64,000 nucleotides of DNA from an uncultured Actinomycetota bacterium. Lineage in GTDB: Bacteria; Actinomycetota; Humimicrobiia; Humimicrobiales; Humimicrobiaceae. The DNA is taken from positions 69,985 to 133,984 of the forward strand of contig CAZRML010000036.1 in assembly GCA_964601205.1 (NCBI GenBank), written 5' to 3'. The position numbers and the translations under genes were made by a program. The notes under the pieces were generated by a model. The model saw only the letters and a program-made list of their open reading frames with translations, did no database searches and was not told the origin of the DNA. This document shows, piece after piece, positions 31,748 through 58,391 of the stretch. The number at the start of each line of letters is the position of its first letter. Positions within the stretch are counted from its first letter, which is position 1.

Positions 31748-31777
31748 TCACTTTCACCTTTAATCTCAATAAATATG

Positions 31778-34371: not shown

Positions 34372-34701
34372 TTATTCTTCATCTCTGTTTATGTGCATAA
34401 GATAATTTTTAAAACAATCCACCACTTCCTCAGGACACTTTCCAAGAATTACATTATCCCTTCTTCTTATCAGTATAATTATTGACTTTAAATTCATACC
34501 CTCGTCATACATAAGCTCTCTTATATACTTCAGCCATCTGATATCAACCTTAGAATAATATCTCTTCCTGCCTCTCCTTAAGGGTCTTACCAGCCTGAAC
34601 TTTTCATAATAATAAAGTGTCCTGCTGTTAACTCCTAAAAAATCAGCTACCAGCTCTATTGGATAACTTTTATCATATTCGTCAAACAATAATCCCACCA
34701 A
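34372..34701 (-). CDS. hspR: MerR-family heat-shock repressor HspR
   Basis: MerR helix-turn-helix (VADFLGVNSRTLYYYEK). First gene of the dnaK-cbpA-clpB unit. Confidence 0.75.
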   Translation of the reverse strand: MVGLLFDEYDKSYPIELVADFLGVNSRTLYYYEKFRLVRPLRRGRKRYYSKVDIRWLKYIRELMYDEGMNLKSIIILIRRRDNVILGKCPEEVVDCFKNYLMHINRDEE

Positions 34702-40790: not shown

Positions 40791-41791
40791 CTTGACCGGC
40801 CCCTTTTTTTAAGTCTTTCTTTAATCAAAGGTACGACCTCAAAAAGATCTGCTACTATTCCAAAGTCTGATATCTTAAAAATCTGTGCGTCAGGGTCGCT
40901 GTTAATTGCTATAATAGTATCTGATGTCTTTATGCCGGCTAAATGCTGGATAGAGCCCGAAATGCCTATGGCTATATATAATTTTGGAGATACTGTTTTG
41001 CCGCTTAAGCCAACCTGATGGGGATAGGATATCCAGCCCCTATCAACCGCGTCCCTTGATGCGCCTATTGAGCCGCCCAGGTTTTTAGCCAGGTCATAAA
41101 TAAGGCTAAAATTTTCTTTTTTCTTCAGTCCCTTTCCACCGGATACCACAATATCCGCATCCTGAATATTTTCTGCTTCATCTTCAGTTTTTCTAAATTT
41201 TATTCTTTCTACTCTTCCATCAATTAACCCGGGCTTTAGCTTAATTTTAATAATTTTACCTTTTCTACTGCTGTCCAGGGGAGCCGGCCTGGTTGACTTC
41301 ATCCTGACTGTAGCCATCTGTGGCTTGCTTTGAGGAGTTTTAATTGTTGCCAGGATGTTACCTCCAATAGCAGGTCTTGTCTGAAGAAGATTGCCAGTAT
41401 CTTTTTCAATATCAAGCTCGGTACAATCAGCAGTAAGTCCGGTTTCAAGTCTTACGGCAACATGGGGCATTAAAGTTCTGCCACCTGTTGTAGCACCGGC
41501 TATTACAATTTCCGGTTTATATCCTTTAATCAAATCCACCAGGACATTGCTATAGTTTTCTACAATAAAGTAATTTAACCTGGGATCATCTACCAGATAA
41601 ACCTTATCGGCCCCTCTATATATGAGCTCGCTTAATTTATCATCACTTATATCATGGCCCAGAAGCACTGACGCCAGCTCTACTCCTAAACTGTTAGCCA
41701 GCTTCCTACCACGGGTTAAAATCTCATAAGATACTTCCCTTATTTTCCCATCACTCTGTTCGGCTATAGTCCAGACACTGTTAGAACTCAC
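40787..41791 (-). CDS. etfA: electron transfer flavoprotein alpha subunit
   Basis: ETF alpha N-terminal domain and C-terminal FAD-binding domain. Overlaps the downstream dehydrogenase start by 4 nt. Confidence 0.85.
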   Translation of the reverse strand: MSSNSVWTIAEQSDGKIREVSYEILTRGRKLANSLGVELASVLLGHDISDDKLSELIYRGADKVYLVDDPRLNYFIVENYSNVLVDLIKGYKPEIVIAGATTGGRTLMPHVAVRLETGLTADCTELDIEKDTGNLLQTRPAIGGNILATIKTPQSKPQMATVRMKSTRPAPLDSSRKGKIIKIKLKPGLIDGRVERIKFRKTEDEAENIQDADIVVSGGKGLKKKENFSLIYDLAKNLGGSIGASRDAVDRGWISYPHQVGLSGKTVSPKLYIAIGISGSIQHLAGIKTSDTIIAINSDPDAQIFKISDFGIVADLFEVVPLIKERLKKRGRSR

Positions 41792-41804
41792 CTGTCATAT
41801 CTCC

Positions 41805-42602
41805 TTAAATTAATTTTTCTTTTTGAATAAAATCTACCAGTCTGTCAACAGCTTCTGAGAGCTCCTCTTCGTCAGCCGGCCTTAAAACTGTACCGCCTCT
41901 TGCTACCTTAGGATGGCTTATCCTAACTACACGGGTAGGAGAACCTTTTAGTCCTAGCTTTTCCTTATCAAGCTTTAAATCATCTGCTGACCATATCGGT
42001 ATTTCTGTCTTTTTAGCCTTCTTCTTTCCCCTTAGTGTAGGAAGCCTCGGATAACTTATTTCTTTTACCACAGTAAGAAGGCAGGGAAGTGGTAACTTTA
42101 GAGTTTCATATCCATCCTCAACCAGCCGCTCCACTATTATCTTTTTACCGGAAATTTCTACAATTTTACTTACATAAGTTGCAATAGGAATATCAAGTAA
42201 CGAACCTATGCCGGGACCTACCTGCCCGGTATCACCATCAGTGGCGCGCTCTCCGGCTAAAATCAAATCATAATTTCCTATCTTCTGTATCGATTTAGAC
42301 AGGGTAAAAGATGTGGCCCAGGTATCAGAACCTTTAAATTCTTTTCCTGCCAGAAGTATTCCTTCATCACAACCCATGGAGATTGCTTCTTTTAAAGCCT
42401 TTTCCGCACCCGGGGGACCCATTGAAATTACTACTATTTTCCCGCCATATTTTTCCTTTAACTGTATGCCAACTTCAATGGCATACAGGTCAAGGGGGTT
42501 GACTATGCTTTCTACCCCTTCCCTTATCATAGTGCCTGTGGCCTCATCCATTTTTACATTCCCTGTTTCGGGAACCTGTTTTATGAGGATGATAATTTGC
42601 AA
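41805..42602 (-). CDS. etfB: electron transfer flavoprotein beta subunit
   Basis: ETF beta fold. Conserved N-terminal MQIIILIKQVP motif. Confidence 0.85.
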   Translation of the reverse strand: MQIIILIKQVPETGNVKMDEATGTMIREGVESIVNPLDLYAIEVGIQLKEKYGGKIVVISMGPPGAEKALKEAISMGCDEGILLAGKEFKGSDTWATSFTLSKSIQKIGNYDLILAGERATDGDTGQVGPGIGSLLDIPIATYVSKIVEISGKKIIVERLVEDGYETLKLPLPCLLTVVKEISYPRLPTLRGKKKAKKTEIPIWSADDLKLDKEKLGLKGSPTRVVRISHPKVARGGTVLRPADEEELSEAVDRLVDFIQKEKLI

Positions 42603-42788
42603 TTTATTCTCCTATGCTTGTAACAATCATAGATTTAATATTCTTTTCTAGTTTCATACTATATATAACTATTGAATTATTCGTATTTTTAATTCCCACA
42701 ATTATCTTCTATGCTACATTTTCAATAAAGAGCTTTCAGTAATAAAACCTAAACAAAATAATTATCACCTTATAAACTTCATTAAAAA

Positions 42789-44588
42789 CTATCGTTTATT
42801 CTTAATACACTCAATCGCCCTTTTAACCGGCGAATCAGAAAATTTCTCCTCAGATGAACTTTTTTGTATTAATTCAATAGTTTCAAATAGAGCTTCACAT
42901 GCATCCAGGTATTTTAATCCTGTCAAATCTGATATAATTCTGCTTCCCCTATCAATTAGTTTCTTATTAGTTGGATTTACATATACCATAACATTCTTTA
43001 CGATTCTTCCCATTCTTGCCATGGTTGCCGTAGAAATTGTGTTAAATACTAATTTGATTGCTGTATGTAAGAATAAGTCCAGTTGGGATTCCGGGGCATT
43101 ATAAGGAATATTCATTACTATATCTTTATCAATATTTTTCGGTAGAATGTCATTTATAATGATATATCCCTTTCTATTATACTTTTTTATATGATTATCA
43201 AATAATTTCCTATATTGAGAATTTTCTTCTTCATACTTAGAGACTTCCCTTCCAGCAAGAAATATTATTGCCGTAGAAGCAGCATTTTGATATCTACCCG
43301 GGCTGTCTTCATAACCAATTTGAAATTTATATATCTCTGAATTACTAATTTTAGGGGGTGATTCGCATAAATTAGACGAAGCCCCCATTGATTCATATAA
43401 ATCTGAATCCCAGTTTAGCCCACGGGGCTCTCTCATGAGCATATTAAACCATGCAGATTTTGTATCAATTAATGGATTTTTTACAAACGCCCATGATTGC
43501 GGTGATTTAAAATCGTCATTTTTTCTAAAATGGGGAATACTAAAAGTTGGTGCTCTTTCTGTGGTATCCGTAAGTATATCAAGCATAAAGGAATCAGAGA
43601 AATAGGTTATAAAACCTTCACGACCATATACTTCCTCTTCCAATTCCACAACACATGCAAGCTGATTAAGAGATTCCCTGGAAGATATAGTTGAAAGCAA
43701 CCCTTTATATCTTTCTACATAATCATCTTTGCACCATTTTTTAATATTCAAAACAGATAATTCATCAATTGTTAATATTTTGTTAAGAACTTTAGCTATT
43801 GCCATCTCAAGAGCCGTACCTATAACCAGCAATTCAACAGTAATGGCCTGCATTCTTGTAGATCCTGTAATAGCCATAGGTCCTGTCGTGAGGTCAAGTT
43901 TGGTTATTTTTTCCTCTTTTATGACTTCCCTTGACCTCTTAAGATGATTTGAAAGGATACCGGCCGGATTGTTAAAGACAAAAAAGACTTTTGCTCCGGA
44001 TTCAAATGCCTGCCATACAGTACCTATTACTGATGGTGTTTCCCCTCCTTCGGTTATAGCTACAAACACATCCCCCTCTTTAATTTTAGCTTCTTTAACC
44101 TGTTGCCTACCGAATGATTGGAAATCTTCAAAATTTTCCAGGGACCTGATTAAAGCGAAATCTCCACCAGTCATAATGCTATAGGAAGAATCGGATATTA
44201 AAGGAAGTTTTGTTTTTAATGCAGGCAATAATTCTTCTGCTCTACTCCAGAATGTACGCCACATTTTTTCCAAAAGTATCCCGAGCCTGCCTGTAGACCC
44301 GCAACCACTGAAACATATTCTCTTTCCTTCTAGCATAGCAGCATACAAAGAACTAACTAACTCATTAAATTCATCTGTTTCCAATACTTTTTTATAAACA
44401 GGGACTATATCCTCATCTACTCTAAAAAGCATTTTCAATCCGGACTGTGTATTATTCTGGACCGTCTCACTAAAATTCATTGTTTTTGGGTGCTGGGATT
44501 CTGTAATCAATTCACCCAAGTGGAATTCTTTTTCATTTTTTATAAACTCTTCTGCTTTCTTTCTTGAATTTGGTAGGCTCATCACCAC
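42789..44588 (-). CDS. GCKR/MurQ-family double-SIS-domain protein (N-acetylmuramic acid-6-phosphate etherase-like)
   Basis: N-terminal region aligns to the MurQ signature (ESQHPKT...FSGCGSTGRLG). About 600 aa with two SIS domains, as in glucokinase-regulator family proteins. Confidence 0.6.
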   Translation of the reverse strand: MVMSLPNSRKKAEEFIKNEKEFHLGELITESQHPKTMNFSETVQNNTQSGLKMLFRVDEDIVPVYKKVLETDEFNELVSSLYAAMLEGKRICFSGCGSTGRLGILLEKMWRTFWSRAEELLPALKTKLPLISDSSYSIMTGGDFALIRSLENFEDFQSFGRQQVKEAKIKEGDVFVAITEGGETPSVIGTVWQAFESGAKVFFVFNNPAGILSNHLKRSREVIKEEKITKLDLTTGPMAITGSTRMQAITVELLVIGTALEMAIAKVLNKILTIDELSVLNIKKWCKDDYVERYKGLLSTISSRESLNQLACVVELEEEVYGREGFITYFSDSFMLDILTDTTERAPTFSIPHFRKNDDFKSPQSWAFVKNPLIDTKSAWFNMLMREPRGLNWDSDLYESMGASSNLCESPPKISNSEIYKFQIGYEDSPGRYQNAASTAIIFLAGREVSKYEEENSQYRKLFDNHIKKYNRKGYIIINDILPKNIDKDIVMNIPYNAPESQLDLFLHTAIKLVFNTISTATMARMGRIVKNVMVYVNPTNKKLIDRGSRIISDLTGLKYLDACEALFETIELIQKSSSEEKFSDSPVKRAIECIKNKR

Positions 44589-44705
44589 TCCTTTTATTTT
44601 TTCTCTATTATTTACAGTAGATCTTAAAATAATTATTCAACGATTTAGTTTTTCAATAATCGCTCTTTCATATGGAAATATCTATTTTACTTCTTTAACT
44701 CAGGA

Positions 44706-46094
44706 CTAATATAAACTTCCAATGGGTGATTTATATTTTTTCTTTTTGGTTTTTTGTTTGAATTCATCTTTAGCAGCATTAATTATATTTCTATTCCTAA
44801 ATAGTCTTATGCAACTTAAAGCTAATATTTTTGCCGCCAATATCATCCCGGCATGCCCAATATGCATACCACTAGACGCTGTCACCTGCCAGGAATGAGG
44901 GGATACGCCCAGCGGAAAGCAAGCTGTAATAAATTTAGCTGCAGGAACAATCCAGCTAACATCCCCAAGATCAGTTGAACCTGGATAATTAATACCCGCC
45001 CCATAAGGAGGTATCATGGTATCGCAAAGATACCTATTTTCTAAATATTTATAAGATCCATCATCTAAATGGGATATATAAAGAGCTTCTTCTCTCTGTC
45101 CTCTATTAAAATTAGAGGCCATTTCTCTGGCAAAATCTTTATCTTTTTGAGTAAATTTTTCTAATTCTATTTTTTCCATAATATCCCACAACATTTTATT
45201 CAATACATCATTATTTAAAAAATTATAGCATCCAGTTATTAATTTTATTTCTAAACTGGTATCAGTCATCAATGCTGCTCCTCTGGCTATGTTTAAAACT
45301 CTTTCATATATTTCTTCCACAGCTTCCCTCCCTGGAGCCCTAACAAAGTACCATACTTCGGCCAGATCTGGAACGATATTCGGCATTATTCCGCCTTTTG
45401 TTATTACATAATGCAAACTGGCATCTTTTATTATATGTTCCCTTAAATAATTAGAACCAATATCAGTTAACTCTACTGCGTCTAATGCACTTCTTCCATT
45501 GAATGGATCTCCAGCAGCATGTGAAGCTATTCCCTTAAAAATAAGCTTAAATGAATTCATTGCCTGAGTCCCACCCAGGTTTATTGAGTTATAACAATCA
45601 GGATGCCATGTTAGGCATATGTCTACATCATTAAAAAGCCCTTCTTTAACCATTATTATTTTACCTGTAATAGTTTCTTCTGCCGGACAACCATAATACC
45701 TGATTGTTCCGCTAAATCTTCCTTCTTTAATAGCTTCTTTTACAGCAACTGCTGCAAACATTGCACCAGTACCTAAAAGATTGTGCCCACAGCCATGCCC
45801 GGACTCCTTTCCCTTAATGGGCTTTTTAAATGGTTTTTTCTCCTGGCCCAAACCCGGTAGAGCGTCGTACTCGCCCAATAAACCTATCACTGGCTTACCG
45901 TTACCATATTCAGCTATGAAAGCATTCTGACAATCCCTTGATTTTTTTATTTTAAATCCTTTAGTAGATAATACATCCATCTGGAGCCTTGCTGATTTAA
46001 CTTCCTTCTGGGACAATTCTGCATATTGCCATATTTTATTAGAGATTCTGATATATTCTTTTTTATTTTCGTTAATAAATTTAATTACCGACAT
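44706..46094 (-). CDS. M20D-family amidohydrolase (AbgB-like)
   Basis: M20 metal-binding motifs (GHGCGHN, HPDC..E). Dimerization domain. Confidence 0.75.
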   Translation of the reverse strand: MSVIKFINENKKEYIRISNKIWQYAELSQKEVKSARLQMDVLSTKGFKIKKSRDCQNAFIAEYGNGKPVIGLLGEYDALPGLGQEKKPFKKPIKGKESGHGCGHNLLGTGAMFAAVAVKEAIKEGRFSGTIRYYGCPAEETITGKIIMVKEGLFNDVDICLTWHPDCYNSINLGGTQAMNSFKLIFKGIASHAAGDPFNGRSALDAVELTDIGSNYLREHIIKDASLHYVITKGGIMPNIVPDLAEVWYFVRAPGREAVEEIYERVLNIARGAALMTDTSLEIKLITGCYNFLNNDVLNKMLWDIMEKIELEKFTQKDKDFAREMASNFNRGQREEALYISHLDDGSYKYLENRYLCDTMIPPYGAGINYPGSTDLGDVSWIVPAAKFITACFPLGVSPHSWQVTASSGMHIGHAGMILAAKILALSCIRLFRNRNIINAAKDEFKQKTKKKKYKSPIGSLY

Positions 46095-46126
46095 TTTTTA
46101 CTAATTGGATAACCCATATTAAAAAT

Positions 46127-46148
46127 TTAACAATAAAGTTATTGTTGA
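46127..46148. promoter_or_regulatory. near-perfect palindrome TTAACAATAA-AG-TTATTGTTGA upstream of M20 gene
   Basis: Arms match 9/10 (core 8-bp arms perfect) with a 2-bp spacer. Lies 33-54 bp upstream of the amidohydrolase start. Confidence 0.35.
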
Positions 46149-46311
46149 TTTACAAAAAAACAATAGTTATTCTAAGATAATCATTCCACATTAAATTTAT
46201 TCCTCTTCAAAAATTATATTCTGAAAAAATGTTAAAGACCCGAAATTAATTAGAGCAATTTCCGGTATACCTTTTGCAATTTAATTTCCTATATTAACCA
46301 ACAAAAAAATG

Positions 46312-47508
46312 CTATTTCTTTATAAAACTATTATCTTTTATCTTTTTTATCAGTTCAGGAATAATTTCATAAAGGTCACCCACCATGCCTATATCAGCAG
46401 TATCAAAAATTGGTGCAGAAGGATCATTATTTATTGCGACTATAAAATCCGATCTTCCCATTCCAGCAAGATGCTGCGCCGACCCGGATATCCCACATGC
46501 TATATAAATCCTGGGCCTGACCGTTTTTCCACTTAACCCCACCTGATGGGGATAGCTTATCCACCCTTTATCAACCGCTACTCTGCTTGCTCCAACCACT
46601 CCACCCAGTGTTTCAGCCAGCTCATTAATAAGTCTAAACCCTTTCTCATTGCCCAGGCCATTACCCCCTGAACAAATAACTTCAGCTTCAATGATATTTA
46701 GATTCTCCTCTATTTTTTCCATCTTCTTTACTTCAACTCTGTCCCGGATTTTTTCTTTATCAAATTTCATATTTACTACTTCACCTTTATATCCGGGAAT
46801 CTTTTCAGCTGGTTTCATAATTTTATATCTAACCGTAGCCATCTGGGGTCTGTTATTGGTACAGATTATGGTTGCCATAATATTCCCGCCAAAAGCGGGT
46901 CTAGTTTGCAGTAAATTTTTGTCTTTCTTATTAATCTCTAATCCCGTACAATCAGCTGTAAGGCCTGTTTCGATACTTGATGAAATTCTTGGTGCGATTG
47001 ACCTTCCAATAGCTGTCCCTCCTATCAGGAAGATGTTTGGTTTAATTTTATTTACAAAGTCAATTAAAATATTAGAATAAGGATCATCTCTGAAATTTTC
47101 CAGGCATTCGTCGTCATAAACAAATACTTTATCTACTCCATAGCTTATTAAATCTTCTGCCTTTTCTGTTACGCCCTTCCCCAGAAGCACGCAGTATAGC
47201 TTCTCACCAGTTTCTTTTGCCAGTTCTCTACCCTTTCCTATTAACTCATAGACCACAGGGGAAACCATACCATCTTTATACTCTCCAAAAATTAGTACCC
47301 CTTTATATCCGGACAGGTCAGCCTTTTTCTTTTCTTTTAATAGTTCAATAGCACCATAAGGACATTCTGAAACACATGCACCGCATAGCTTGCAATCTTC
47401 AGATATTACTGCCAGGCTGTCAATTATTGATATTGCATTAAAAGGACAGGCCTTAATACAAAGACCACAACCTGTACATTTTTCTTTAATAACCCTTATT
47501 TTTTTCAT
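46312..47508 (-). CDS. ferredoxin-fused electron transfer flavoprotein alpha subunit (2x[4Fe-4S] + EtfA)
   Basis: N-terminal CTGCGLCIKACP and CKLCGACVSECP motifs. Followed by complete ETF alpha domains. Confidence 0.85.
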   Translation of the reverse strand: MKKIRVIKEKCTGCGLCIKACPFNAISIIDSLAVISEDCKLCGACVSECPYGAIELLKEKKKADLSGYKGVLIFGEYKDGMVSPVVYELIGKGRELAKETGEKLYCVLLGKGVTEKAEDLISYGVDKVFVYDDECLENFRDDPYSNILIDFVNKIKPNIFLIGGTAIGRSIAPRISSSIETGLTADCTGLEINKKDKNLLQTRPAFGGNIMATIICTNNRPQMATVRYKIMKPAEKIPGYKGEVVNMKFDKEKIRDRVEVKKMEKIEENLNIIEAEVICSGGNGLGNEKGFRLINELAETLGGVVGASRVAVDKGWISYPHQVGLSGKTVRPRIYIACGISGSAQHLAGMGRSDFIVAINNDPSAPIFDTADIGMVGDLYEIIPELIKKIKDNSFIKK

Positions 47509-47518
47509 TAAGAACTCC

Positions 47519-48313
47519 TCATAAAATCTTCTTTTCTTTTAACTTTTCAATTAAAATTTTAGCCTGATATTCTGGCTTTCCTTTTATTATTTCACCTTTA
47601 CCACGGGCCGGAGGAGGAAATATTTTTACAACTTCTGTGGGAGAGCCTTCTGTACCATATCTCTTTTCTTTACCTCCTAAATCTTTTAAGTTCCATGTTG
47701 ATATTGGAGTTTCTTTTGCCATTTTCTGTCTTTTAAAAGATGGGTACCTTGGTTCATTTGCTTCCTTGGTAACTGTAACTACAACCGGTAATTTAGACTC
47801 CACTATTTCGTAATAATCATCTAAAACTCTCTCCAGAGATATCGATCTTTCTTTTAGATCTATAATTTTTCTAACATAACCTATAAACGGAATACCCAGC
47901 TCTTCAGCCAGGCTGGGACCAACCTGTCCGGTATCACCATCAGTGGTCTTCAAACCACACATTATGATATCATAACTACCTATTTTTTTTATACCAGATG
48001 CCAGGGTATAGGCTGTTGCCCAGGTATCAGCGCCGGCAAATTTTTTATCGGTTAGCAAAATAGCATTATTACAACCCATAGCTATAGCTTCTCTTAAAGC
48101 GGCATCGGCCTGAGGGGGCCCCATGCTGATAACATCTACTTCGCCACCGTATTTCTCTTTTAATCTGATAGCTTCTTCAATTGCATACATATCAAATGGA
48201 TTGACCTCAGACAGAACACCCTCACGGATCAGAGTCCCTTTTTCCTGATCCATCATCACATCTGTTTGTGCAGGTACCTGCTTTATACATACTATTATTT
48301 TTAATTTATCCAA
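47519..48313 (-). CDS. electron transfer flavoprotein beta subunit (second copy)
   Basis: ETF beta fold. Paired with the ferredoxin-fused EtfA. Confidence 0.85.
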   Translation of the reverse strand: MDKLKIIVCIKQVPAQTDVMMDQEKGTLIREGVLSEVNPFDMYAIEEAIRLKEKYGGEVDVISMGPPQADAALREAIAMGCNNAILLTDKKFAGADTWATAYTLASGIKKIGSYDIIMCGLKTTDGDTGQVGPSLAEELGIPFIGYVRKIIDLKERSISLERVLDDYYEIVESKLPVVVTVTKEANEPRYPSFKRQKMAKETPISTWNLKDLGGKEKRYGTEGSPTEVVKIFPPPARGKGEIIKGKPEYQAKILIEKLKEKKIL

Positions 48314-48350
48314 TTAAATCCCCCGTTTACTTTAAAAGTTGATTACTTTT

Positions 48351-49220
48351 TTAACCTTTCACTGCTCCTTCAACAAGACCCCGGATAATTACTTTCTGGA
48401 ACAGTAATGCTAATATTACCACGGGAATACTTGAAATTACCCCCGTAGCTAAAATTTTTGTCACTTCCATATTCTCCATATTACTTAGAACACCGACATA
48501 CACTGTAAATGGTGTAGATTTTGTTTTAGTCAGTATCAGACCTATTAAAAAATTAGACCATGCTATGATAAAAGTGTAAACAGACACAGCTCCGATTCCA
48601 GGCAATGCAACAGGTATAATTATTCTTAATAATGCTTTAAATCTTGTACAACCATCAACCAGGGCAGCTTCTTCTAAAGCATCTGGTATAGTATCATAAA
48701 ATGACTTCATTACCCATATTGAAAAAGGTAAGGTATACGCAGTTAATACAATTACCAGCCCCCATATAGTGTCATAAAGGCTCAGATTTACAAACTGAAG
48801 ATATAACGGGATCAGAATTGCCATCGTTGGAACCATTGATGCAAATAGAAAAAGAAGTAATATCATATTTCTGCCCCTCATCTTGCTCCTGGATAGAGGG
48901 TAAGCCGCAAGGCATGCACTCACAGTTGCAATTATTGTAGTGGGAATAGCTATTTTTAGACTGTTAATAAATGTAGCAACTGCTCTTTTAGATGAAACCA
49001 TTACATATCTGTAATTTTCAAAAAGTTCTGTTATTGTATTCCATTCGTTGGGAAATAAATGAAAGTTTGGATAATGATTTAAATATAACTCATGTTCACT
49101 CATTAAAGAACTAAAAATCATAATTATGACCGGAAACATAATTACAATAACCGAAGAATAAAGTAAAAAATAAAAAAATGCTCTAAGAAGATTCTCTTTT
49201 GTTTTTGGTTTTATAGACAT
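48351..49220 (-). CDS. ABC sugar transporter permease (MalG-like, CUT1)
   Basis: Six TM helices with an EAA loop (LEEAALVDGCTRF). Confidence 0.8.
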   Translation of the reverse strand: MSIKPKTKENLLRAFFYFLLYSSVIVIMFPVIIMIFSSLMSEHELYLNHYPNFHLFPNEWNTITELFENYRYVMVSSKRAVATFINSLKIAIPTTIIATVSACLAAYPLSRSKMRGRNMILLLFLFASMVPTMAILIPLYLQFVNLSLYDTIWGLVIVLTAYTLPFSIWVMKSFYDTIPDALEEAALVDGCTRFKALLRIIIPVALPGIGAVSVYTFIIAWSNFLIGLILTKTKSTPFTVYVGVLSNMENMEVTKILATGVISSIPVVILALLFQKVIIRGLVEGAVKG

Positions 49221-49256
49221 ATAAATATTTTCTAATTATTTTTATTATTAATTATA

Positions 49257-50171
49257 TTAGTACCTTACTTCCCTGTAAGTTATTCTATAGTAGAATACTG
49301 ATATTATAATTATTAACAATGATACAAAAAACGCTATCGCTGCTCCAAGCCCGAACTTCATAAAAGTAAATGAATAAAGATATGAAATATAATTAAGTAC
49401 AGAAGTAAAATTACCCGGCCCACCTCTGGTTAGTATATAAATCAAATCAAATGCCTTAAAAGTTTCTACAGATAGTAAAATAAATACAATTACCATAGAC
49501 GGCCTGACCAGTGGTAAGGTAATTGAAAAAAACCTTCCTACAGGAGACATTCCATCTACACCTGCTGCCTCATATAATTCTTTTGGAATAGTTTTTAGTG
49601 ATGCTGAAAGTAGGAACACGGTAATTGGCAAAATTTTATATACAGTCGTTAACACAATCATAATAAAAGCAGGCCATTGTTCAGATTGCCATTCTCTAAA
49701 ATTATTTAGTAATCCCATAGCTATCAATATATTATTAAAAGTACCAAGCCTGGGGCTAAATATCCATTTCCACATAAGCCCTACTACAACAGGAGGAAGT
49801 GCCCATGGTATTAAAAGAAGAGCCATTATTAAGTTGGAACCTCTTAAATCCATATTTAATAATACAGCCAGGAAAAGACCAAAAACTATTGCCAGGGCAG
49901 TAACAACCAGTGCAAAAAGTACTGTTATCCAGACTGAGTGGGCTATGTCAGGTATTTTAAATATGTTTATATAATTTTCAATTCCAATAAACTTCGGTGT
50001 CTTACCCAGTCTCCAATCAAACAAACTCATAACAAATGAATAGATAACAGGGAACACCATAACAAATAATATAAATACTATAGCGGGCAACATCATATTT
50101 AAATTAAAACTGTTTCTTCTTAAGGATAGCGGAATCTCTTTTTTTCTATTATTTAAATACATATTTACCAT
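49257..50171 (-). CDS. ABC sugar transporter permease (MalF-like, CUT1)
   Basis: Six TM helices. EAA-like loop (YEAAGVDGMSPV). Confidence 0.8.
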   Translation of the reverse strand: MVNMYLNNRKKEIPLSLRRNSFNLNMMLPAIVFILFVMVFPVIYSFVMSLFDWRLGKTPKFIGIENYINIFKIPDIAHSVWITVLFALVVTALAIVFGLFLAVLLNMDLRGSNLIMALLLIPWALPPVVVGLMWKWIFSPRLGTFNNILIAMGLLNNFREWQSEQWPAFIMIVLTTVYKILPITVFLLSASLKTIPKELYEAAGVDGMSPVGRFFSITLPLVRPSMVIVFILLSVETFKAFDLIYILTRGGPGNFTSVLNYISYLYSFTFMKFGLGAAIAFFVSLLIIIISVFYYRITYREVRY

Positions 50172-50234
50172 ATAATACTATCTAATAACAAAAAAGGAAG
50201 GCAGGTGAAAAATCACCTGCCTTTTAACCATTTA

Positions 50235-51647
50235 TTATTCCAAATATGATTCCCACGTTGAATAGAATAAATCCTCAAGCTGGTTGAGTGTTTCTTCTTC
50301 ATCAATTTTATTACTAAAGTAGTTTTCAAAAATCGGTATACTTCCATTCTCTATTTCACTCATATTTGGTTCTACATATCTTACCGACCTGCTGGCCATA
50401 TCCAATGAAATCGGTATATAGGGGTACTCGGTAACATATTCCTCATCATTTGCAAGTGCTAATCTTACCGGGCAGAACCCATCATGCTCGTTTCTCCACT
50501 TCTGTATTGGAATAGATGAATAGAACAGGCAAAAAGCTAACGCATTATCCAGGTTTTCAGCACCATCTCTAATTACATACCCCATATCACCTGTAACACA
50601 ATAGCTTTCATTATCTCCATCTACAGGTACTTCGGCCCAACCTATCTTATCCGAATTTTCCGGGAAGTTATTTAAAATATCAGCATAAACCCATCCCATA
50701 TAATTCCAGGATAGACCTACACCGCCTGCTGAAAATGAAGACCTTGACTGTCCAGGGTCACCGGCTGCCATAACGGGATCAGAAAAATCACTGGCATAAA
50801 GTGCTTTTTCTACCTGCAGAGCTCTTATACCGTATTCATCATTAAACAATGCTTCGGGGTTACTTGGATCCTCGTTCCAGTATTCGCCGCCCACATTCTT
50901 TAATAATGCATAAAATACAGGATTCCAGCTCTGACCGGGTTGTGACACTCCTGTAAAACCATAAGTTTCAGGTAACCCGTCATTATCTTCATCTACGGTA
51001 CAATCCGCTGCACACTGGAGAAAATCATTAATCTGTTTTGGTGGTGTATCATAACCTGCTTTTGATAGTATTTCCGTATTATACTGGATACCCCATATTC
51101 CAACAAAGAAAGGAACACCAAACCACTTGTCCCCGGAGCCAACAGCCTTGTGAATGCCCGGTACTATATCATCTTTTAATTCCTGTGGAATCATATCGGT
51201 TACATCCATTAGATAATCCTTAAACTGGTTTGTCCATGCCCCCCAGCTCCACATAAGATCAAAATCTGCAGTTCCGGTTTCGAGTTCCATAGCTATTTTT
51301 GATGCATACTCTGCATATGGAATCGCTACCCAATTAACTTCTACTTCAGGATACGCATCTAAAAACATCGATGTAACGCTTTCTTCCAGAGCCATTTCAT
51401 CTTTATAAGAATAAATATTTAACTGTCCGGATGGTTTAAGCCCTGCTTTCTCAATCCAGTAAGTTGCAGTTTCCACCGCTTCTTCTACTTCTTCAGCTTC
51501 TTCTGCTACTTCCTCTGCTTCTTCTGCTACTTCTTCTGCTACTTCCTCAGCTTTTGCGCAACCCATTGGTAAAATAGCCATTGAAATTGTAAAAACTACA
51601 ATAGCTACCCATGCAATTGACTTAACTTTAGAAATCATCTTACACAA
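50235..51647 (-). CDS. ABC transporter extracellular solute-binding lipoprotein (family 1) with acidic AEEV repeat linker
   Basis: Signal peptide with lipobox (MGC). Low-complexity AEEVAEEVAEEAEEV tether. SBP_bac_1 fold. Confidence 0.8.
   Translation of the reverse strand: MCKMISKVKSIAWVAIVVFTISMAILPMGCAKAEEVAEEVAEEAEEVAEEAEEVEEAVETATYWIEKAGLKPSGQLNIYSYKDEMALEESVTSMFLDAYPEVEVNWVAIPYAEYASKIAMELETGTADFDLMWSWGAWTNQFKDYLMDVTDMIPQELKDDIVPGIHKAVGSGDKWFGVPFFVGIWGIQYNTEILSKAGYDTPPKQINDFLQCAADCTVDEDNDGLPETYGFTGVSQPGQSWNPVFYALLKNVGGEYWNEDPSNPEALFNDEYGIRALQVEKALYASDFSDPVMAAGDPGQSRSSFSAGGVGLSWNYMGWVYADILNNFPENSDKIGWAEVPVDGDNESYCVTGDMGYVIRDGAENLDNALAFCLFYSSIPIQKWRNEHDGFCPVRLALANDEEYVTEYPYIPISLDMASRSVRYVEPNMSEIENGSIPIFENYFSNKIDEEETLNQLEDLFYSTWESYLE
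51476..51552. repeat. in-frame tandem repeat (12-nt GCTTCTTCTGCTAC-type units) encoding (A/E)EEV acidic linker of the SBP
   Basis: Directly visible repeated gcttcttctgctacttc units. Encodes the low-complexity linker after the lipobox. Confidence 0.7.
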
Positions 51648-51851
51648 TCTCCTTTCACACTTTAAAATAGTGCTGAGTCTTCAATCTGATAATCTTTTTT
51701 ACTATAATTATCACCTCCTAATATCTCTAAAAAGATTTATAAAATTTTTCACCTCCTGCTTTATTTTTTTTTATCCAAATTACATACAAAATAACTTTTT
51801 AATATCCATCAATTCGTTAGAGCTTTTACAAATAATTAATACAAATATATT

Positions 51852-53048
51852 TTAATAACCATTGAAATCGTAAATACAGCAAGAATCTTTTACCAGCTCA
51901 GCTATATCTCTTACCTCTATATCATAACCCCTGCTATCCATAGCCCCCTTTAGCATTTGCAGACATAGAGGACAGGCCACTGCAACTACGTCAACGTCTA
52001 ATTCCTTGATCTGGTCTGCCCTGGCCAGATCCATTTTTACATTGGGAAGATCCATCCATAGAACAGGCCCTCCACCTCCGCAGCAATATGAATTTCCTCT
52101 TGACAGCTCAAGTTCAACCAGTTCAACTCCTGGAATGCTTTTCAATATTTCCCTGGGTTCCTCATAAATATTATTACGTCTCCCCAGATAACATGAATCA
52201 TGGTATGTAATTTTTTTATTTATCTTCTTACCAATTTTAATTATTTTTGAATTTATTAGTTCCCAGAGTACCTGGGTATAATGTTTAACCTCTATATTTT
52301 CCAGACCTTCATAATAGTTTAAGAAAATGTCATAATCGTGAGGAGAAAAGCAAATTATCTTCTTAATTTTATACTTTTTAAAAATCTCCAGATTATGTTC
52401 AACCATTTCTTCATATATTCCTTCATCTCCCAGCATCATAGCCTGGGAACCGCTATCCATTTCCTGGCTACCAAGCATGCGAAATTTTACTCCTGCTCTT
52501 TTCAAAATATCTATTACAGCTTCTGCAGCAACTCTTGCATCTTCATCATAGGGGACAAACGACCCAACATATAGAAGAGTTTCAGCTTCTTCATCCTTAA
52601 TACCCATCTTATTAACCCAGTCATCTTTAACTTTTGGCAGACCACCATAAGGATTTCCGAACTTCATGATATTGCTCAGGACATCCCTTATTCTTGGATC
52701 AATGTTTCCGTTTTCTACTTTCATTGCCCTCAAAATTTCTGTAGTAGTTGCTCCGCTTACAACGTTCTTCCGGGTTTTTTTGGTAAGAAATACATTTTCA
52801 CCACAATACCATTCACATGCTCTACAGCCACTGCAGGCATAAAGTATTTCGTCAGGTATGTCAGAAATATTATATTCACCCTTTAATACTCCGAGCGCTA
52901 CCTGCGCAATGCCTCTTGGTGAAACAGACCCGATTTGTAACTGATTGTATGCCGGGCAATCCTTATTGCACAATCCGCAAGAGCAGCTCAAACAATTCTC
53001 TAGCGCTTTACCATAATCCTTTAACGTAACTATATTGTGTTTATCCAT
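51852..53048 (-). CDS. Fe-S oxidoreductase, GlcF/HdrD-like (2x[4Fe-4S] ferredoxin + two CCG domains)
   Basis: CLSCSCGLCNKDCP and CSGCRACEWYC cluster motifs. C-terminal CCG domains (SYCCGGGG, CPLC). Confidence 0.8.
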   Translation of the reverse strand: MDKHNIVTLKDYGKALENCLSCSCGLCNKDCPAYNQLQIGSVSPRGIAQVALGVLKGEYNISDIPDEILYACSGCRACEWYCGENVFLTKKTRKNVVSGATTTEILRAMKVENGNIDPRIRDVLSNIMKFGNPYGGLPKVKDDWVNKMGIKDEEAETLLYVGSFVPYDEDARVAAEAVIDILKRAGVKFRMLGSQEMDSGSQAMMLGDEGIYEEMVEHNLEIFKKYKIKKIICFSPHDYDIFLNYYEGLENIEVKHYTQVLWELINSKIIKIGKKINKKITYHDSCYLGRRNNIYEEPREILKSIPGVELVELELSRGNSYCCGGGGPVLWMDLPNVKMDLARADQIKELDVDVVAVACPLCLQMLKGAMDSRGYDIEVRDIAELVKDSCCIYDFNGY

Positions 53049-53061
53049 AACCTAAAACTCC

Positions 53062-54585
53062 TTAAAATATTATTTTTGGATTCATTATGTTTTTTGGATC
53101 AATTGACTTTTTTATTTTCTTCATCAATTTATAAGCATTTTTACCCATATTCCTTTCCATAATCTCTACTTCCAGATCCCTTGGTATCCACGCATGGGTA
53201 GTAGCTATTGCTCCATCACACTCAAATATTAATTCAACATATTTTTTATACCAATCAAGAAATTCCCCCCTGAACTTCTTATTCATATTTTTTCTATAAA
53301 CATGTATTGTAGCCCAGGTTTTATTAAAGCCTAAAACTCCTGGTAAAACTCTTCCAATATCTCTGGCAATTGTGCAATTTGCTAGATTAGGATATATCTC
53401 TTTATTTTCCATGTCATAGCAATGTTTCCTAAATTTAGCATGCCATTCTATGAGTCTGCTATCAGGAATGTTTGGATCTAAAAATATTGGCTTAGCAGAA
53501 TAACCATCTGCATTAATATGCTTGCTGAATACATCCGTAGCGATACCTAAACTTACATTTACCTTCTTATAAAGCCCTTTCCATTCTCTTGAATGTGCAT
53601 CCCACCAATTAGTAATTTCTGTCACTTCCGGGGCACAAAATCCATTATGTTTTTTTATAATATCCTCAGCAATATTCTTCATGCCATCAACTTCATACTG
53701 TAAACCATAAATAGAATAATGGACCACCATAGCTATTTCTTTCGGCCAGGGTTTCCCAATAGTTTGTTCGGAATATGATTCTTCATCTACTGAACACGAA
53801 ACCCTCCATAAATTATTTGAATATTTGCTCCTTTTTAATTCTAAATAAGCTTCTAGCCCTTCTTTAAAAGTTCCAAAGGCAGCTTCCCCATAGTGCTCTG
53901 CCGGAGGATAGTCTGTGAATCTTTCAGTTACTTTGGTAATAATACCCAATGTTCCTCTTGAACCAATAAACAAATTCATTAAATCCCATCCTGTCGATGA
54001 TTTTGTAGGTTTATTCGATCCCCTTCCTACATCAATTACGCTTCCATCAGGTAATACCACTTCAATTTTATAAATATTATTACCAGCAGGACCCCATCTA
54101 TTTTCCCAATAACCATATCCATTAACTGCAGGGCGAGAACCCAGGGTACATATTTCTTCTGATCCGGGGTAATCTGTGGGCATATACCCCCTCTTTATTA
54201 AATAACTAATCAGCTCCATCATATTTACCCCTGCTTCTCCAGTGATTCTATAGTCCTCCTCATTCAGCTCCAGAATTTTATTCATTTTTTTTGTTTCAAT
54301 AACTATGCCTCCGCGCATGCCTTCTGCACCATAAGTCCCAGATCTACCCCCTGAAGGGACTAATGGGATCCCATTTTTATCCGCAAATTTAACTATTTTT
54401 TGTACGTCTTCAGTACTAGTGGGAGTAACTACTGCATCAGGTAAAAATATTTCTAGATAATCTTCATGTAACAAACACTCAGGTCCATGTGTAACCGTAT
54501 AGCACATCCTGGTAGGCTTATCAGTAAATACATTCAAATCTCCTATAGCTTTCCTAAGCTCACTTATTTCCTTTTCTGAAACCAT
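53062..54585 (-). CDS. FAD-linked oxidase, GlcD/AGPS-like
   Basis: PCMH-type FAD-binding domain. Extended C-terminal substrate domain. AGGAAGGAGAG Shine-Dalgarno. Paired with the CCG Fe-S protein. Confidence 0.75.
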   Translation of the reverse strand: MVSEKEISELRKAIGDLNVFTDKPTRMCYTVTHGPECLLHEDYLEIFLPDAVVTPTSTEDVQKIVKFADKNGIPLVPSGGRSGTYGAEGMRGGIVIETKKMNKILELNEEDYRITGEAGVNMMELISYLIKRGYMPTDYPGSEEICTLGSRPAVNGYGYWENRWGPAGNNIYKIEVVLPDGSVIDVGRGSNKPTKSSTGWDLMNLFIGSRGTLGIITKVTERFTDYPPAEHYGEAAFGTFKEGLEAYLELKRSKYSNNLWRVSCSVDEESYSEQTIGKPWPKEIAMVVHYSIYGLQYEVDGMKNIAEDIIKKHNGFCAPEVTEITNWWDAHSREWKGLYKKVNVSLGIATDVFSKHINADGYSAKPIFLDPNIPDSRLIEWHAKFRKHCYDMENKEIYPNLANCTIARDIGRVLPGVLGFNKTWATIHVYRKNMNKKFRGEFLDWYKKYVELIFECDGAIATTHAWIPRDLEVEIMERNMGKNAYKLMKKIKKSIDPKNIMNPKIIF

Positions 54586-55437: not shown

Positions 55438-55674
55438 ATGCCTTTAGAACTGGATTCTTACCCTGCCACTTCTGTTGCATTTTTTTTATTTTCTTTCTTT
55501 GCCTGGATTTATGAAGGATATCTCTGGTGGCTTATTTTTGGTATACTTATTACTATAATATACAGTATCAAAAGTTATGGTCTGCTGAAATCATATTATA
55601 CAGAAAACAGAAGAGACGTAAGTCCGGTAATTAAAAAAAATTTAAACCATTTTTTAAAGGAATGTAAAACATGA
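55438..55674 (+). CDS. small two-TM membrane protein, hypothetical
   Basis: 78 aa with two hydrophobic helices (W/F-rich). Its stop overlaps the nrdR start (ATGA). Confidence 0.45.
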   Translation: MPLELDSYPATSVAFFLFSFFAWIYEGYLWWLIFGILITIIYSIKSYGLLKSYYTENRRDVSPVIKKNLNHFLKECKT

Positions 55675-56126
55675 AATGTCCATTTTGCTCAAACCCTGAT
55701 ACCAGAGTCATAGACTCCAGACTAACAGAGTCAAACGACTGTGTTAGAAGGAGAAGGTTATGTGAAAAATGCGGTAAAAGGTTTACAACTTATGAAAGAT
55801 TTGAGAATGAGCCCATCGCAGTCATAAAAAAAGATAATACAAGAGAACCCTTTGACAGAAATAAAATACTGAGCGGCCTTATCAGAGCCTGCATTAAAAG
55901 AAATATAAGCACTGAAATTCTAAATAATATAGTGGATGACATAGAAAATGAAATCTCAAACATGCCCTCAAATGAAATACACTCAAGGGAAATAGGTAAC
56001 CTTGTCTTAAAGAGATTAAAAAAACTGGACAAAGTCGCCTACATAAGATTCGCTTCTGTTTATAAGCAATTTAACGATATAAAACAATTTACCCGGGAAC
56101 TCTCTGAATTGAAAAAAACTAAATAA
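55671..56126 (+). CDS. nrdR: transcriptional repressor NrdR
   Basis: N-terminal zinc ribbon MKCPFC...CEKCGKRFTTYE followed by an ATP-cone. Confidence 0.9.
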   Translation: MKCPFCSNPDTRVIDSRLTESNDCVRRRRLCEKCGKRFTTYERFENEPIAVIKKDNTREPFDRNKILSGLIRACIKRNISTEILNNIVDDIENEISNMPSNEIHSREIGNLVLKRLKKLDKVAYIRFASVYKQFNDIKQFTRELSELKKTK

Positions 56127-56230: not shown

Positions 56231-57397
56231 CTAAAGCTTATATCTTAATACAGCTCCGATGCTCCCTGCTTTTGTTAATCTATCATTTCCTTCAATATCA
56301 ACTATTTCGCAACCCTGACTTAAGGCATCCTCAACAATTCCATCAACCACATCATTATAAAAGATGAGCTTTCCATCACAATAGGGACATTTCTTCTTAT
56401 CCTCTATTGTTATATAACCACAATCACTGCAAATATAACCACTGTGAGTAAAGTGCCTGTCATATATCAGGGTTTTTATTTGCTCTATCAATAAAGATTT
56501 TATTGTGGCATCAATTCCCAGAACGCCCATTCCATTGGGATTAAACTCATCAAACAAACTGTTTATAAGATTATTTTTAACTTCTGACTCAAATTTATCA
56601 ATAACCTCTTTTGCTTTTTCTGCTATCAATGAAACATTCGAATCCGGTTCCGCATCAATGTTTCCTATAAGTACGGATTTAAGGTAACTATGCATTAAGT
56701 TTCTAAATTTGGGAATTACTTCTTTTCTACCTGATAATATAATGTAATCAAACTTTTTTCCCTTATAAAGCTCCAGAGTTTTATCATTTATCAGTTTAAA
56801 AAAATGATTTAGCTTTTCTTCCAGCCTTCCGAGTATTTTCTTCTCCCTCAACGCAGCCTGGCTCCTGAAATTGACCTTCGATGGCACATCACTTATAAAT
56901 GCACCCAGGTATTCATTAACTTCACCAAGATAAATAGAATATATCTGAGCTTTCTCTCTATCAACCATAAGTACCCCGTATTTTTTAGAATTATTAATCA
57001 AATTTCTAATATTCTGGGTGTAGGGACTCGGGTCAATTATAATTTTTGACTTCATTATTATAGGCAGGCTGAACTCTTCCCACAGACCATCACCAGAGCA
57101 AAAAATTGCCAGGGTTCTCGTTGAACCAGCCCTGAACTTATCGTTCACAAATGATTTTATTTTCTCGAAAATCTCATATATCTCCTTTTTATCATTTCTA
57201 TCAACATTAGTATCAGCCTCCAGCTTCTCCCTGGCGCTCACGATCATGGAGTTTAATTTTGTCTGATAATTTTTTTTAGAAGTCCTGGAACCATCAACCA
57301 TTAAATAAATGCTCACCACCGGTTTACCACCGGGAGCATAATTTAATATTTTTTTAAAACCCGAACTTTTTACTTCCTGATGTAACATAAAAACCAA
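56231..57397 (-). CDS. bacterial eRF1/Pelota-family protein lacking GGQ, with zinc-ribbon insert in domain 3
   Basis: C-terminal third aligns to eRF1/Pelota domain 3 (GIDATIKSLLIEQIKTLIY ... KAGSIGAVLRY, compare GFGGIGGILRY). The middle region aligns to domain 2, with GGQ replaced by RSQ (FRSQAALREKK versus GRGGQSALRFARLR). A CSDCG...CPYCDG ribbon is inserted. Confidence 0.6.
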   Translation of the reverse strand: MVFMLHQEVKSSGFKKILNYAPGGKPVVSIYLMVDGSRTSKKNYQTKLNSMIVSAREKLEADTNVDRNDKKEIYEIFEKIKSFVNDKFRAGSTRTLAIFCSGDGLWEEFSLPIIMKSKIIIDPSPYTQNIRNLINNSKKYGVLMVDREKAQIYSIYLGEVNEYLGAFISDVPSKVNFRSQAALREKKILGRLEEKLNHFFKLINDKTLELYKGKKFDYIILSGRKEVIPKFRNLMHSYLKSVLIGNIDAEPDSNVSLIAEKAKEVIDKFESEVKNNLINSLFDEFNPNGMGVLGIDATIKSLLIEQIKTLIYDRHFTHSGYICSDCGYITIEDKKKCPYCDGKLIFYNDVVDGIVEDALSQGCEIVDIEGNDRLTKAGSIGAVLRYKL

Positions 57398-57536
57398 CTT
57401 TCTATTAATTTATGATATCATCAGATATCTTTTTAGAATAAAATATATGTTCTTTTTTATTATTATCTCATAAACTTCCATTTATAACTAAAATTTATTA
57501 TCATTATACAATATCAATTCAAGAAAGAGAGCAATT

Positions 57537-58391
57537 GTGTTTGGTTATATAGGATATAAGATCCTTGAATTTATTGTTATTTTAACTCCTTACCCCATAA
57601 CATATTTTATTGCAGAATTTGGTGCCAGACTGTGGTTTTCAACAGGCAGCAATGTAAAAACTATAAAAACAAATATATCTAAAGTTCTTGATATTGATTT
57701 AAACAGCCCGCAGGTGCACAAAATTGCACTCAGGGTTTTTATAAACTGGGCAAAAAACATTGGTGACTTTCTTAAACACTCTATCATCACGGCTGAAGAA
57801 TTAAAAAGAAGAATAGAAATCAAAGGTCTGGATAACCTGGATAATGCCTTAAAAAAAGGAAAGGGCGTGGTCATATTTACAGCCCATATCGGAAATTTTG
57901 AGTGGGGTGCGTGCAGACTTGCTGTCGAAGGATATAAGATATGGGGTGTCAGTATCTACAGGGAGAACAACCTCACCAGAAAATTTTTTGAAAAAAAAAG
58001 ATTATCCAAAGGGCTTAAGACCCTTTACATAAATAAAATTTTAAATATTTTTAGAATACTAAAAAACAATGAAATAATAGCCATACCCTCCGACTGGGAC
58101 CCCACCGGCCAGGCCGCCAGGCCCTTTAAATTCTTTGGGAAAACTGCTTACTTTCCTACAGGTGCAGTGCAGATTGCACTAAGATCCGGCGCACAGTTAT
58201 TACCGAGTTTTATCTGGAGAAAAGATAAATACAGTCATTTTCAGATAATCGGCAGTCCGATAAAATTAACACAGAAAGGAAACAGGGAAACACTCATTAA
58301 CAAAAACACCGAGAAAACCCTAAAAGTCATGGAAAAATATGTACACAGCCACATTTCAGAATGGGAAATGTTTCATAACATATGGGAATAA
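57537..58391 (+). CDS. LpxL/HtrB-family lipid A biosynthesis (lauroyl/myristoyl) acyltransferase-like protein
   Basis: HIGNFE (HX4E) motif. Size and N-terminal TM anchor typical of LpxL/LpxM. GTG start. Confidence 0.65.
   Translation: MFGYIGYKILEFIVILTPYPITYFIAEFGARLWFSTGSNVKTIKTNISKVLDIDLNSPQVHKIALRVFINWAKNIGDFLKHSIITAEELKRRIEIKGLDNLDNALKKGKGVVIFTAHIGNFEWGACRLAVEGYKIWGVSIYRENNLTRKFFEKKRLSKGLKTLYINKILNIFRILKNNEIIAIPSDWDPTGQAARPFKFFGKTAYFPTGAVQIALRSGAQLLPSFIWRKDKYSHFQIIGSPIKLTQKGNRETLINKNTEKTLKVMEKYVHSHISEWEMFHNIWE

Follow-up and report, generated by a model that had tools for sequence, protein, structure and literature searches.

A candidate Balon-like hibernation factor with an intact zinc ribbon in uncultured Humimicrobiaceae

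A 64,000-nt stretch of DNA from an uncultured Actinomycetota bacterium of the Humimicrobiaceae (GenBank assembly GCA_964601205.1, contig CAZRML010000036.1, positions 69,985 to 133,984; hereafter the window) carries on its reverse strand, at 56231..57388, a gene for a 385-aa homologue of the release factors aRF1 and eRF1. The protein is a member of the aeRF1 superfamily and belongs to baeRF_family10, the family that holds the Balon protein MSMEG_1130 of Mycolicibacterium smegmatis. By analogy with that protein, it is probably a non-hydrolytic, Balon-like factor that would hibernate ribosomes from the A site, a reading to which we assign a probability of about 0.62, the rest being divided between the rival readings considered below and some other ribosome-associated role. 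We count it as a further member of a known family and not as a new type of system, given that the family was described computationally in 2019 and one of its members structurally in 2024.

Family membership and domain architecture

The open reading frame reported in the initial annotation (56231..57397, reverse strand) was confirmed, and all of the motifs listed for it (GIDATIKSLL, RSQ, CSDC, CPYC, and GSIGAVLRY) were found. Counted from the TTG at 57395-57397 it encodes 388 aa. We prefer the ATG at 57386-57388, which yields 385 aa and a coding sequence of 56231..57388 including the stop codon, and we use this form and its numbering because 385 aa is the exact length of an identical deposited protein (P0001) and of nearly all homologues, and because a Shine-Dalgarno-like AGAAAG lies 9 nt upstream of this ATG. 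The same hexamer directly touches the TTG, and that start was discarded. The reading frame is a real gene under purifying selection, not a chance occurrence: the ratio of nonsynonymous to synonymous substitution rates (dN/dS) is 0.07–0.14 against four orthologues, and orthologues are present in 52 species-level genomes. Word sharing identified 221 relatives, and a search of a 1.8-billion-protein library returned 2,019 cluster representatives of this sub-family (50% identity) at E ≤ 1e-3; repeating the homologue search with a profile of distant members recovered essentially the same clade and gained little. Bacterial versions, initially taken to be rare, are thus not so, Balon-like homologues having been reported in ∼20% of representative bacteria (PMC10901736).

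The protein matched the Pfam family baeRF_family10 (PF18854; 40.3 bits, cutoff 27.1, E = 5e-10) over the middle domain (residues 122-261, equivalent to 125-264 of the 388-aa form), which also gave a weak match to Pfam eRF1_2. All 102 of 102 distant relatives matched baeRF_family10 too (best E = 7.6e-41), as did residues 11-375 of MSMEG_1130 (124.6 bits, E = 4.9e-36), a sequence rebuilt from the alignment and checked to be identical to the PDB chain. Because both match this family, the query and MSMEG_1130, which has been characterized by cryo-electron microscopy (cryo-EM), fall into one curated family. Among NCBIfam models, TIGR03676 (aRF1/eRF1) was matched over the full length at 69.5 bits, below its cutoff of 234.7 (E = 2e-19). 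The three hibernation-factor models scored 67.8 against a cutoff of 330 (AOC03_06830, the Balon family of Psychrobacter urativorans; E = 1e-18, residues 25-386), 53.7 against 480 (MSMEG_1130_fam; E = 1.6e-14, full length and sub-threshold), and 12.4 against 320 (the Rv2629 family).

When the single sequence was searched against PDB sequences, eRF1 was found at E = 2.5e-7 and MSMEG_1130 at 7e-6 over residues 55-386. With a family profile of 144 sequences, MSMEG_1130 ranked first (9.2e-36, full length), ahead of Halobacterium aRF1 (4af1; 1.1e-29, residues 5-378 against 19-413), eRF1 (∼4e-21, limited to the middle domain), P. urativorans Balon (6.9e-17), Rv2629 (1.1e-16), and Pelota (6.7e-13). 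The proposed membership of the eRF1/Pelota superfamily is borne out by the PF18854 match, by the sub-threshold aRF1 match, and by Foldseek matches to aRF1, eRF1, and Balon at 1e-17 to 1e-24; the closest characterized relative, the hibernation factor Balon, had been missed.

An AlphaFold2 model computed on the family alignment contains three folded domains, with a mean predicted local distance difference test score (pLDDT) of 87.2 and a predicted template modelling score of 0.76; weak spots are limited to the first six residues and to the loop at ∼165-180 (pLDDT 52-73). The best Foldseek match of this model in the PDB was ribosome-bound Msmeg1130 (8v9l_z; E = 1.9e-24, template modelling (TM) score 0.65). 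aRF1 4af1 (7.4e-21, TM 0.51), P. urativorans Balon (8rdw_B; 3e-20, TM 0.57), and many eRF1 chains were also matched, Pelota/Dom34 weakly (1e-10 to 1e-5), and the alignments to full-length aRF1 and Balon chains spanned 370-408 columns.

Profile alignments, model, and Foldseek agree on the three-domain aeRF-1 architecture (N, middle, and Pelota-type C), all on the reverse strand. The N-terminal domain (aa 1-120; 57029..57388) is homologous in profile comparisons to the decoding-centre-binding N domain of Balon and aRF1. It is followed by a linker and an RNase-H-like middle domain corresponding to eRF1 domain 2 (aa 121-262; 56603..57028), assigned from PF18854, the eRF1_2 match, and alignment to the eRF1 middle domain. 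The C-terminal domain (aa 263-385; 56234..56602), equivalent to eRF1 domain 3, aligns with the C-termini of aRF1, eRF1, and MSMEG_1130 and contains GIDATIKSLL (aa 291-300; 56489-56518) and GSIGAVLRY (aa 375-383; 56240-56266), the latter followed by KL and the stop; family-wide conservation reaches at least 90% at G291, L307, A379, L381, and R382.

The N-terminal ∼130 aa had been described as unmatched, yet full-length profile alignments extend through this region in both MSMEG_1130 and aRF1. A profile built from the first 140 residues alone found two distinct sequences in the PDB, both of them Balon (8v9j_z, 7.8e-6; 8rd8_B, 0.011), and because it matched Balon chains alone we consider the N-terminal third a Balon-type N domain and no orphan. 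Its strand-1/loop motif, VVSxYLxVDxxRxxKxxYxTxLNSM (aa 24-48), is conserved, with 9 of 23 positions invariant in aa 26-48. By comparison, the helical-hairpin tip equivalent to NIKS (DTNVDRND, aa 57-67) is conserved less than any other part of the protein, none of its 11 positions being invariant, and given this unconserved tip the alignment gives no sign of codon reading.

These comparisons bear on the initial description of the protein as Pelota/Dom34-like. A rescue factor of that kind would sense stalled ribosomes whose A-site mRNA is empty or truncated and drive their dissociation or recycling without peptidyl-tRNA hydrolysis. The superfamily is shared, the loss of GGQ parallels Dom34, a single gene in housekeeping synteny would fit a constitutive quality-control factor, and Dom34-like non-catalytic relief of stalled ribosomes has been considered for baeRF-1 proteins (PMC6514570). 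Pelota is, however, by far the most distant solved relative, both in sequence (6.7e-13 vs. 9.2e-36) and in fold (∼1e-10 vs. 1.9e-24), and the query had no match to the NCBIfam Pelota model TIGR00111 at E ≤ 1; only 7 of the 102 distant relatives had one. The N domain is likewise not Pelota-like, its profile having found Balon instead, and to our knowledge bacteria lack the Pelota partners ABCE1 and Hbs1. With the solved family-10 member acting as a hibernation factor on vacant and translating ribosomes (PMC10901736), we consider Pelota-like rescue a rather doubtful explanation.

Zinc ribbon and catalytic-loop remnant

Domain 3 contains, as first reported, a C4 zinc ribbon (aa 317-344, GYICSDCGYITIEDKKKCPYCDGKLIFY; 56357..56440, reverse strand), with CSDC at aa 320-323 and CPYC at aa 334-337, which forms a two-hairpin element in the AlphaFold2 model (pLDDT 91-94). 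Its cysteines are conserved in distant relatives (C320, 100%; C323, 88%; C334, 99%; C337, 96%), and 115 of the 137 distant, full-length family-10 representatives (84%) carry the CxxC...CxxC pattern, as do 116 of 117 sequences of the query's own clade. Profile alignments pair the ribbon with the cysteine-bearing aRF1 4af1 insert (YECPNDH...CSDCGEE) and with the cysteine-free MSMEG_1130 stretch VGTVGADGSLYADGEIAPHSHAAT. Burroughs and Aravind describe an ancestral ribbon in the aeRF-1 Pelota domain and, in many baeRF-1 families, a two-strand insert that is maybe a degenerate ribbon (PMC6514570), while the C domain of Balon has a unique beta-hairpin, or beta-loop, that forms part of its EF-Tu(GDP) interface (PMC10901736). 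The cysteine conservation in distant family members, the alignment with the aRF1 insert, and this ancestry all contradict the original description of the ribbon as inserted. If our alignment is right, the ribbon would instead be the retained ancestral form of Balon's EF-Tu-facing hairpin, and we predict that it is the EF-Tu(GDP)-facing element of this protein. As the majority state within the family, it is no distinguishing novelty.

A more distinctive mode of action, for which we see a slim chance, is that this branch is a zinc- or redox-gated hibernation factor, with metal loading or cysteine oxidation gating engagement of the ribosome and EF-Tu, or that the [RK]-S-[QE] loop of the clade engages the peptidyl-transferase centre in a manner unlike any solved Balon.

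This loop is the remnant of the GGQ loop (aa 166-181, SDVPSKVNFRSQAALR; 56846..56893, reverse strand). Alignment with eRF1 confirmed that GGQ is missing and that R175-S176-Q177 (nt 56858-56866) stands in its place: FRSQAALR of the query aligns with GGQSALR of eRF1, so that Q177 falls on the GGQ glutamine. (The eRF1 chain 3jag used for comparison is a mutant in which the GGQ position appears as AAQ.) The loop has the length of that of eRF1, and a conserved basic helix, REKKxLGRxEEKLHHFFK, comes directly after it. Among 118 clade members, Q177 is replaced in 25 (Q in 93, E in 21, N in 3, H in 1), whereas the neighbouring V168, P169, V172, N173, and E182 are invariant. The tetrapeptides at this site are FRSQ (48), FKSQ (19), FRSE (18), YRSQ (17), and LRRQ (5), with YKSE (3), FRRQ (2), FRSN (2), FRSH (1), and YRSN (1) rarer.

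The wider family differs at the same site. The tripeptide of the 137 distant representatives is mostly G-G-W/F or A-G-W; their loops follow [GAS]x[WFY]xG in 70 and GGW[SA]Q in 19 of 137, and GGQ occurs in the loop of only one (P0141). Where the catalytic glutamine would stand, most of the zinc-ribbon family-10 representatives P0125-P0270 have a strongly conserved aromatic residue. These GG[W/F]-loop, zinc-ribbon proteins, from Binatia, Acidobacteriota, WOR-3, Zixibacteria, and others, stand nearest to the query among proteins outside its clade, with 25-34% full-length identity, and share with it the C4 ribbon, the loop length (type B), and the Pfam family. They differ from the query in having G-G-W/F or A-G-W followed by xGxxE or [SA]Q. 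The change from GG[W/F] to [RK]-S-[QENH], and that of the linker from PYxRPL to PYTQN[IL]R, are, judged from these alignments, the clade-specific traits.

Q177 raises the question of an active alternative release factor or peptidyl-tRNA hydrolase, in which it would serve as the GGQ glutamine. Its position exactly on that residue and the eRF1-like loop length would fit such an enzyme, as would the high conservation of the surrounding loop (mean top-residue frequency 0.88), and Burroughs and Aravind singled out family 10 as possibly hydrolytic given its conserved glutamine (PMC6514570). That statement does not seem to hold in the query's clade (79% Q) and holds only partly in the sampled family, where most members have W or F at the position. 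Hydrolysis of peptidyl-tRNA appears unlikely because both glycines are lost, to R/K and S, and because Q177 varies to E, N, or H where a catalytic glutamine would not. The peptidyl-transferase centre stays inert with MSMEG_1130, another family-10 protein without the motif, and GGQ mutations abolish peptide release by eRF1 according to the work of Frolova (1999) as cited in PMC10901736. The protein remains homologous to aRF1 and eRF1 across all three domains, shares their C-terminal GxxGxLR[YF], and has its ribbon at the site of the cysteine-bearing aRF1 insert, but it lacks GGQ, NIKS, and YxCxxxF, and the unconserved NIKS-equivalent tip leaves codon reading without evidence. A bacterial host is expected to have its own RF1 and RF2. 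We consider an active hydrolase improbable.

Evidence for and against ribosome hibernation

A ribosome-binding role without hydrolysis, as first proposed, is still the best reading of the protein, and Balon provides the most fitting model. MSMEG_1130 and Rv2629 bind the A site and recruit EF-Tu(GDP), as seen by cryo-EM and pelleting, and inhibition of translation was assayed in vitro; MSMEG_1130 occupies both vacant and translating ribosomes as a hibernation factor (PMC10901736). The operational definition given there counts as Balon any bacterial aeRF1 homologue that has the three domains and is 300 aa or longer, and the query, with 385 aa and three domains, falls within it; like Balon, it has neither GGQ nor NIKS.

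By this analogy, the protein would enter the ribosomal A site independently of mRNA under starvation or stress, with its N domain on the decoding centre. The degenerate GGQ loop and the basic helix behind it would lie beside the peptidyl-transferase centre without activating it, so that no peptide would be released. Domain 3 would point toward the factor-binding site, where the zinc ribbon would touch domain III of EF-Tu(GDP), and the outcome would be a ribosome that is reversibly silenced and protected. We infer ribosome binding, EF-Tu contact, and the hibernation role itself from the behavior of the solved homologues.

Of the solved structures, MSMEG_1130 (8v9j and 8v9l; PMC10901736), itself from an actinomycetote, is the best match in both sequence profile and fold. 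It aligns collinearly with the query over three domains, and the two have in common the YL..D motif of strand 1, the P[YF] motif of the linker, and an A-[AV]-LR[YW] C-terminus. P. urativorans Balon (8rd8, 8rdv, and 8rdw; AOC03_06830) has the same three-domain aeRF1-like architecture but is separated from the query by its equivalog cutoff, by its loop THREHPAND where the query has MVDGSRTSKKNY, and by a beta-loop where the query has the zinc ribbon. Its lasso loop around A2602 and its bL27 trap are defined structurally, on the ribosome (PMC10901736), and are not identifiable from the query sequence. Pelota/Dom34, a superfamily member that also lacks GGQ, ranks last among the solved relatives.

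Several observations weigh against assigning a Balon function. Identity to MSMEG_1130 is 19%, and the cutoffs of all three NCBIfam hibernation-factor equivalogs (AOC03_06830, MSMEG_1130, and Rv2629) are missed. The named contact elements of Balon are not confirmable: its HP motif in the N domain contacts A1492 and A1913 (PMC10901736), and the H-P dipeptide is absent from the query at both candidate positions derived from alignments, SRTSKK standing against EHPAND of P. urativorans and YTQNI of the linker against FIHPL of MSMEG_1130 (H-P to Q-N). Both regions are strongly conserved within the clade. The EF-Tu-side element is an intact zinc ribbon, unlike the hairpin of the solved structures, which is cysteine-free in MSMEG_1130, and zinc-ribbon-bearing family-10 proteins are known from sequence alone. 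Finally, Balon genes typically lie in stress-response operons with RaiA/HPF, Hsp20, and the like, a tendency and not a defining trait (PMC10901736). The gene described here is not part of a stress or hibernation operon; it stands alone between nrdR and an acyltransferase gene in 52 genomes, with a P-type ATPase gene beyond, and hpf/raiA, prfA/prfB, and tuf were not found within the window, where the nearest heat-shock genes are ∼25 kb away. Among seven distant family-10 loci sampled singly, one has an HPF neighbour.

Gene neighbourhood, distribution and implications

The 52 genomes with an orthologue all come from uncultured Actinomycetota, among them Ca. Humimicrobium, Ca. Hydromicrobium, and Humimicrobiaceae. 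Almost every clade locus, down to 47% identity of the baeRF protein, keeps a five-gene order in which genes for a P-type ATPase and the acyltransferase point away from the baeRF gene, which converges with nrdR and a gene for a 78-aa membrane protein beyond it. In the window, nrdR lies at 55671..56126 on the forward strand (TIGR00244, 201 bits vs. a cutoff of 125), convergent with the baeRF gene and in a separate transcription unit. The divergent neighbour at 57537..58391, also on the forward strand, belongs to the LpxL/PatA acyltransferase family (Pfam Lip_A_acyltrans, E = 9e-34). Both orientations agree with the initial annotation, although its label lpxL could not be established given that the protein reaches neither the NCBIfam cutoff of lipid A lauroyl acyltransferase (100.7 vs. 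248) nor that of phosphatidylinositol mannoside (PIM) acyltransferase (83.5 vs. 209); for an actinobacterial host, lipid A synthesis is no more plausible than a PatA-like role. In the forward-strand gene for the 78-aa predicted membrane protein (55438-55674), the stop codon runs into the start codon of nrdR (ATGA). Most clade genomes keep this gene ahead of nrdR, at 44-86% identity, and its product matches neither Pfam nor NCBIfam.

Because the baeRF gene is always its own transcription unit in the clade loci and all of the genomes are from one lineage, we read the synteny as inherited and not as functional linkage. Functional coupling to nrdR or to the acyltransferase was rejected, given the convergent and divergent orientations and the restriction of the synteny to one lineage. 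The 148-bp divergent intergenic region between the baeRF and acyltransferase genes (57389..57536) presumably holds the baeRF gene's own promoter; promoter-like matches were at chance level (10 found vs. 8.8 ± 3.3 expected), and the promoter/terminator scan yielded a single terminator-like site, assigned to nrdR. No Rfam family was found in this region, the Rfam search yielding only tRNAs.

The conflict context suggested at first is contradicted by this stable, housekeeping synteny, and a role in targeting or shielding ribosomes during infection is very improbable: baeRF-1 diversification has been argued to be driven by biological conflicts and lateral transfer (PMC6514570), but no PADLOC-DB 2.0 family matched the protein or its three neighbours at E ≤ 0.01, the gene is transcribed by itself and lacks an effector or sensor partner, and five-gene synteny without mobile-element genes near the baeRF gene in 52 species-level genomes of one lineage points to vertical inheritance.

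Two metagenome-assembled genomes each contain two contigs with a clade-type baeRF gene (L033 and L035 in JBNJCV01; L038 and L055 in JAZFRP01). The acyltransferase neighbour is present on both contigs of the first pair and only on L055 of the second, since L038 begins at the gene. The duplication could be true paralogy or strain heterogeneity in the bins; Balon paralogy has been reported in 38% of species (PMC10901736). P0001 was deposited as "delta proteobacterium ML8_D," which looks like a taxonomic mislabel because every orthologous locus is from uncultured Actinomycetota. The locus L028 shares 86-97% protein identity with the window over eight consecutive genes.

Distant family-10 members are found in Binatia, Acidobacteriota, WOR-3, and Zixibacteria-like bacteria. 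In Binatia, the gene of the nearest relative outside the clade, P0125, directly follows, at a distance of 22 nt, an S30AE/HPF-domain gene (positions 4987-5979 of locus L058, from GCA_026004195.1), whose 330-aa product has weak matches to Ribosomal_S30AE (HPF), Sigma70_r4_2, and PhyR_sigma-like and may be a chimeric HPF. Association with HPF-domain genes has been reported in the literature for baeRF-1 and Balon, and according to a 2025 preprint chimeric hpf genes often adjoin Balon genes. At two of the seven sampled loci, a gene for an SppA/Peptidase_S49 or SDH_protease/NfeD-type serine protease comes after the baeRF gene and shares its strand (L060, 7202-9577, from WOR-3; L066, 6230-7045, from the P0300/P0141 cluster, which includes a Zixibacteria-labelled member), which may be a recurring association; the remaining loci share nothing.

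Elsewhere in the window, a heat-shock cluster occupies 26144-34698 on the reverse strand, with genes for a MerR-family regulator (34372-34698), DnaK (32333-34291), Hsp20 (31860-32297), DnaJ (30761-31747), ClpB (28112-30706), and an ABC-F-type double-ABC protein with ABC_tran_Xtn (26144-28108); this last class has ribosome-binding translation factors among its members. Also on the reverse strand are a tight cluster of five tRNA genes at 20518-20943 (Phe-GAA, Asp-GTC, Val-TAC, Glu-TTC, and Lys-TTT) and a separate tRNA-Gln-TTG at 7861-7934. The reverse-strand region 39372-54585 contains two FAD-linked oxidase genes, one at 39372-40790 and one at 53062-54585, and a gene for a CCG/Fe-S subunit (51852-53048) comes after the second. 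Two electron-transfer-flavoprotein pairs (40787-42602 and 46312-48313) lie alongside, with an N-terminal ferredoxin domain in the second pair, as do sugar ABC transporter genes; the set suggests lactate- or glycolate-type oxidation coupled to electron-transfer flavoprotein in an anaerobe.

For annotation, the name "peptide chain release factor 1 (eRF1)" on these bacterial proteins is misleading. If the protein is indeed a hibernation factor, Balon-type hibernation would reach uncultured, deep-branching Actinomycetota of the Humimicrobiaceae/Hydromicrobium type in anoxic sediments and soda lakes, habitats in which one expects slow growth and dormancy to play a central part. Most family-10 proteins would then retain an intact zinc ribbon where the EF-Tu-binding hairpin of Balon arose, and would offer a natural intermediate between aRF1 and Balon in which to study the conversion of a release factor into a hibernation factor.

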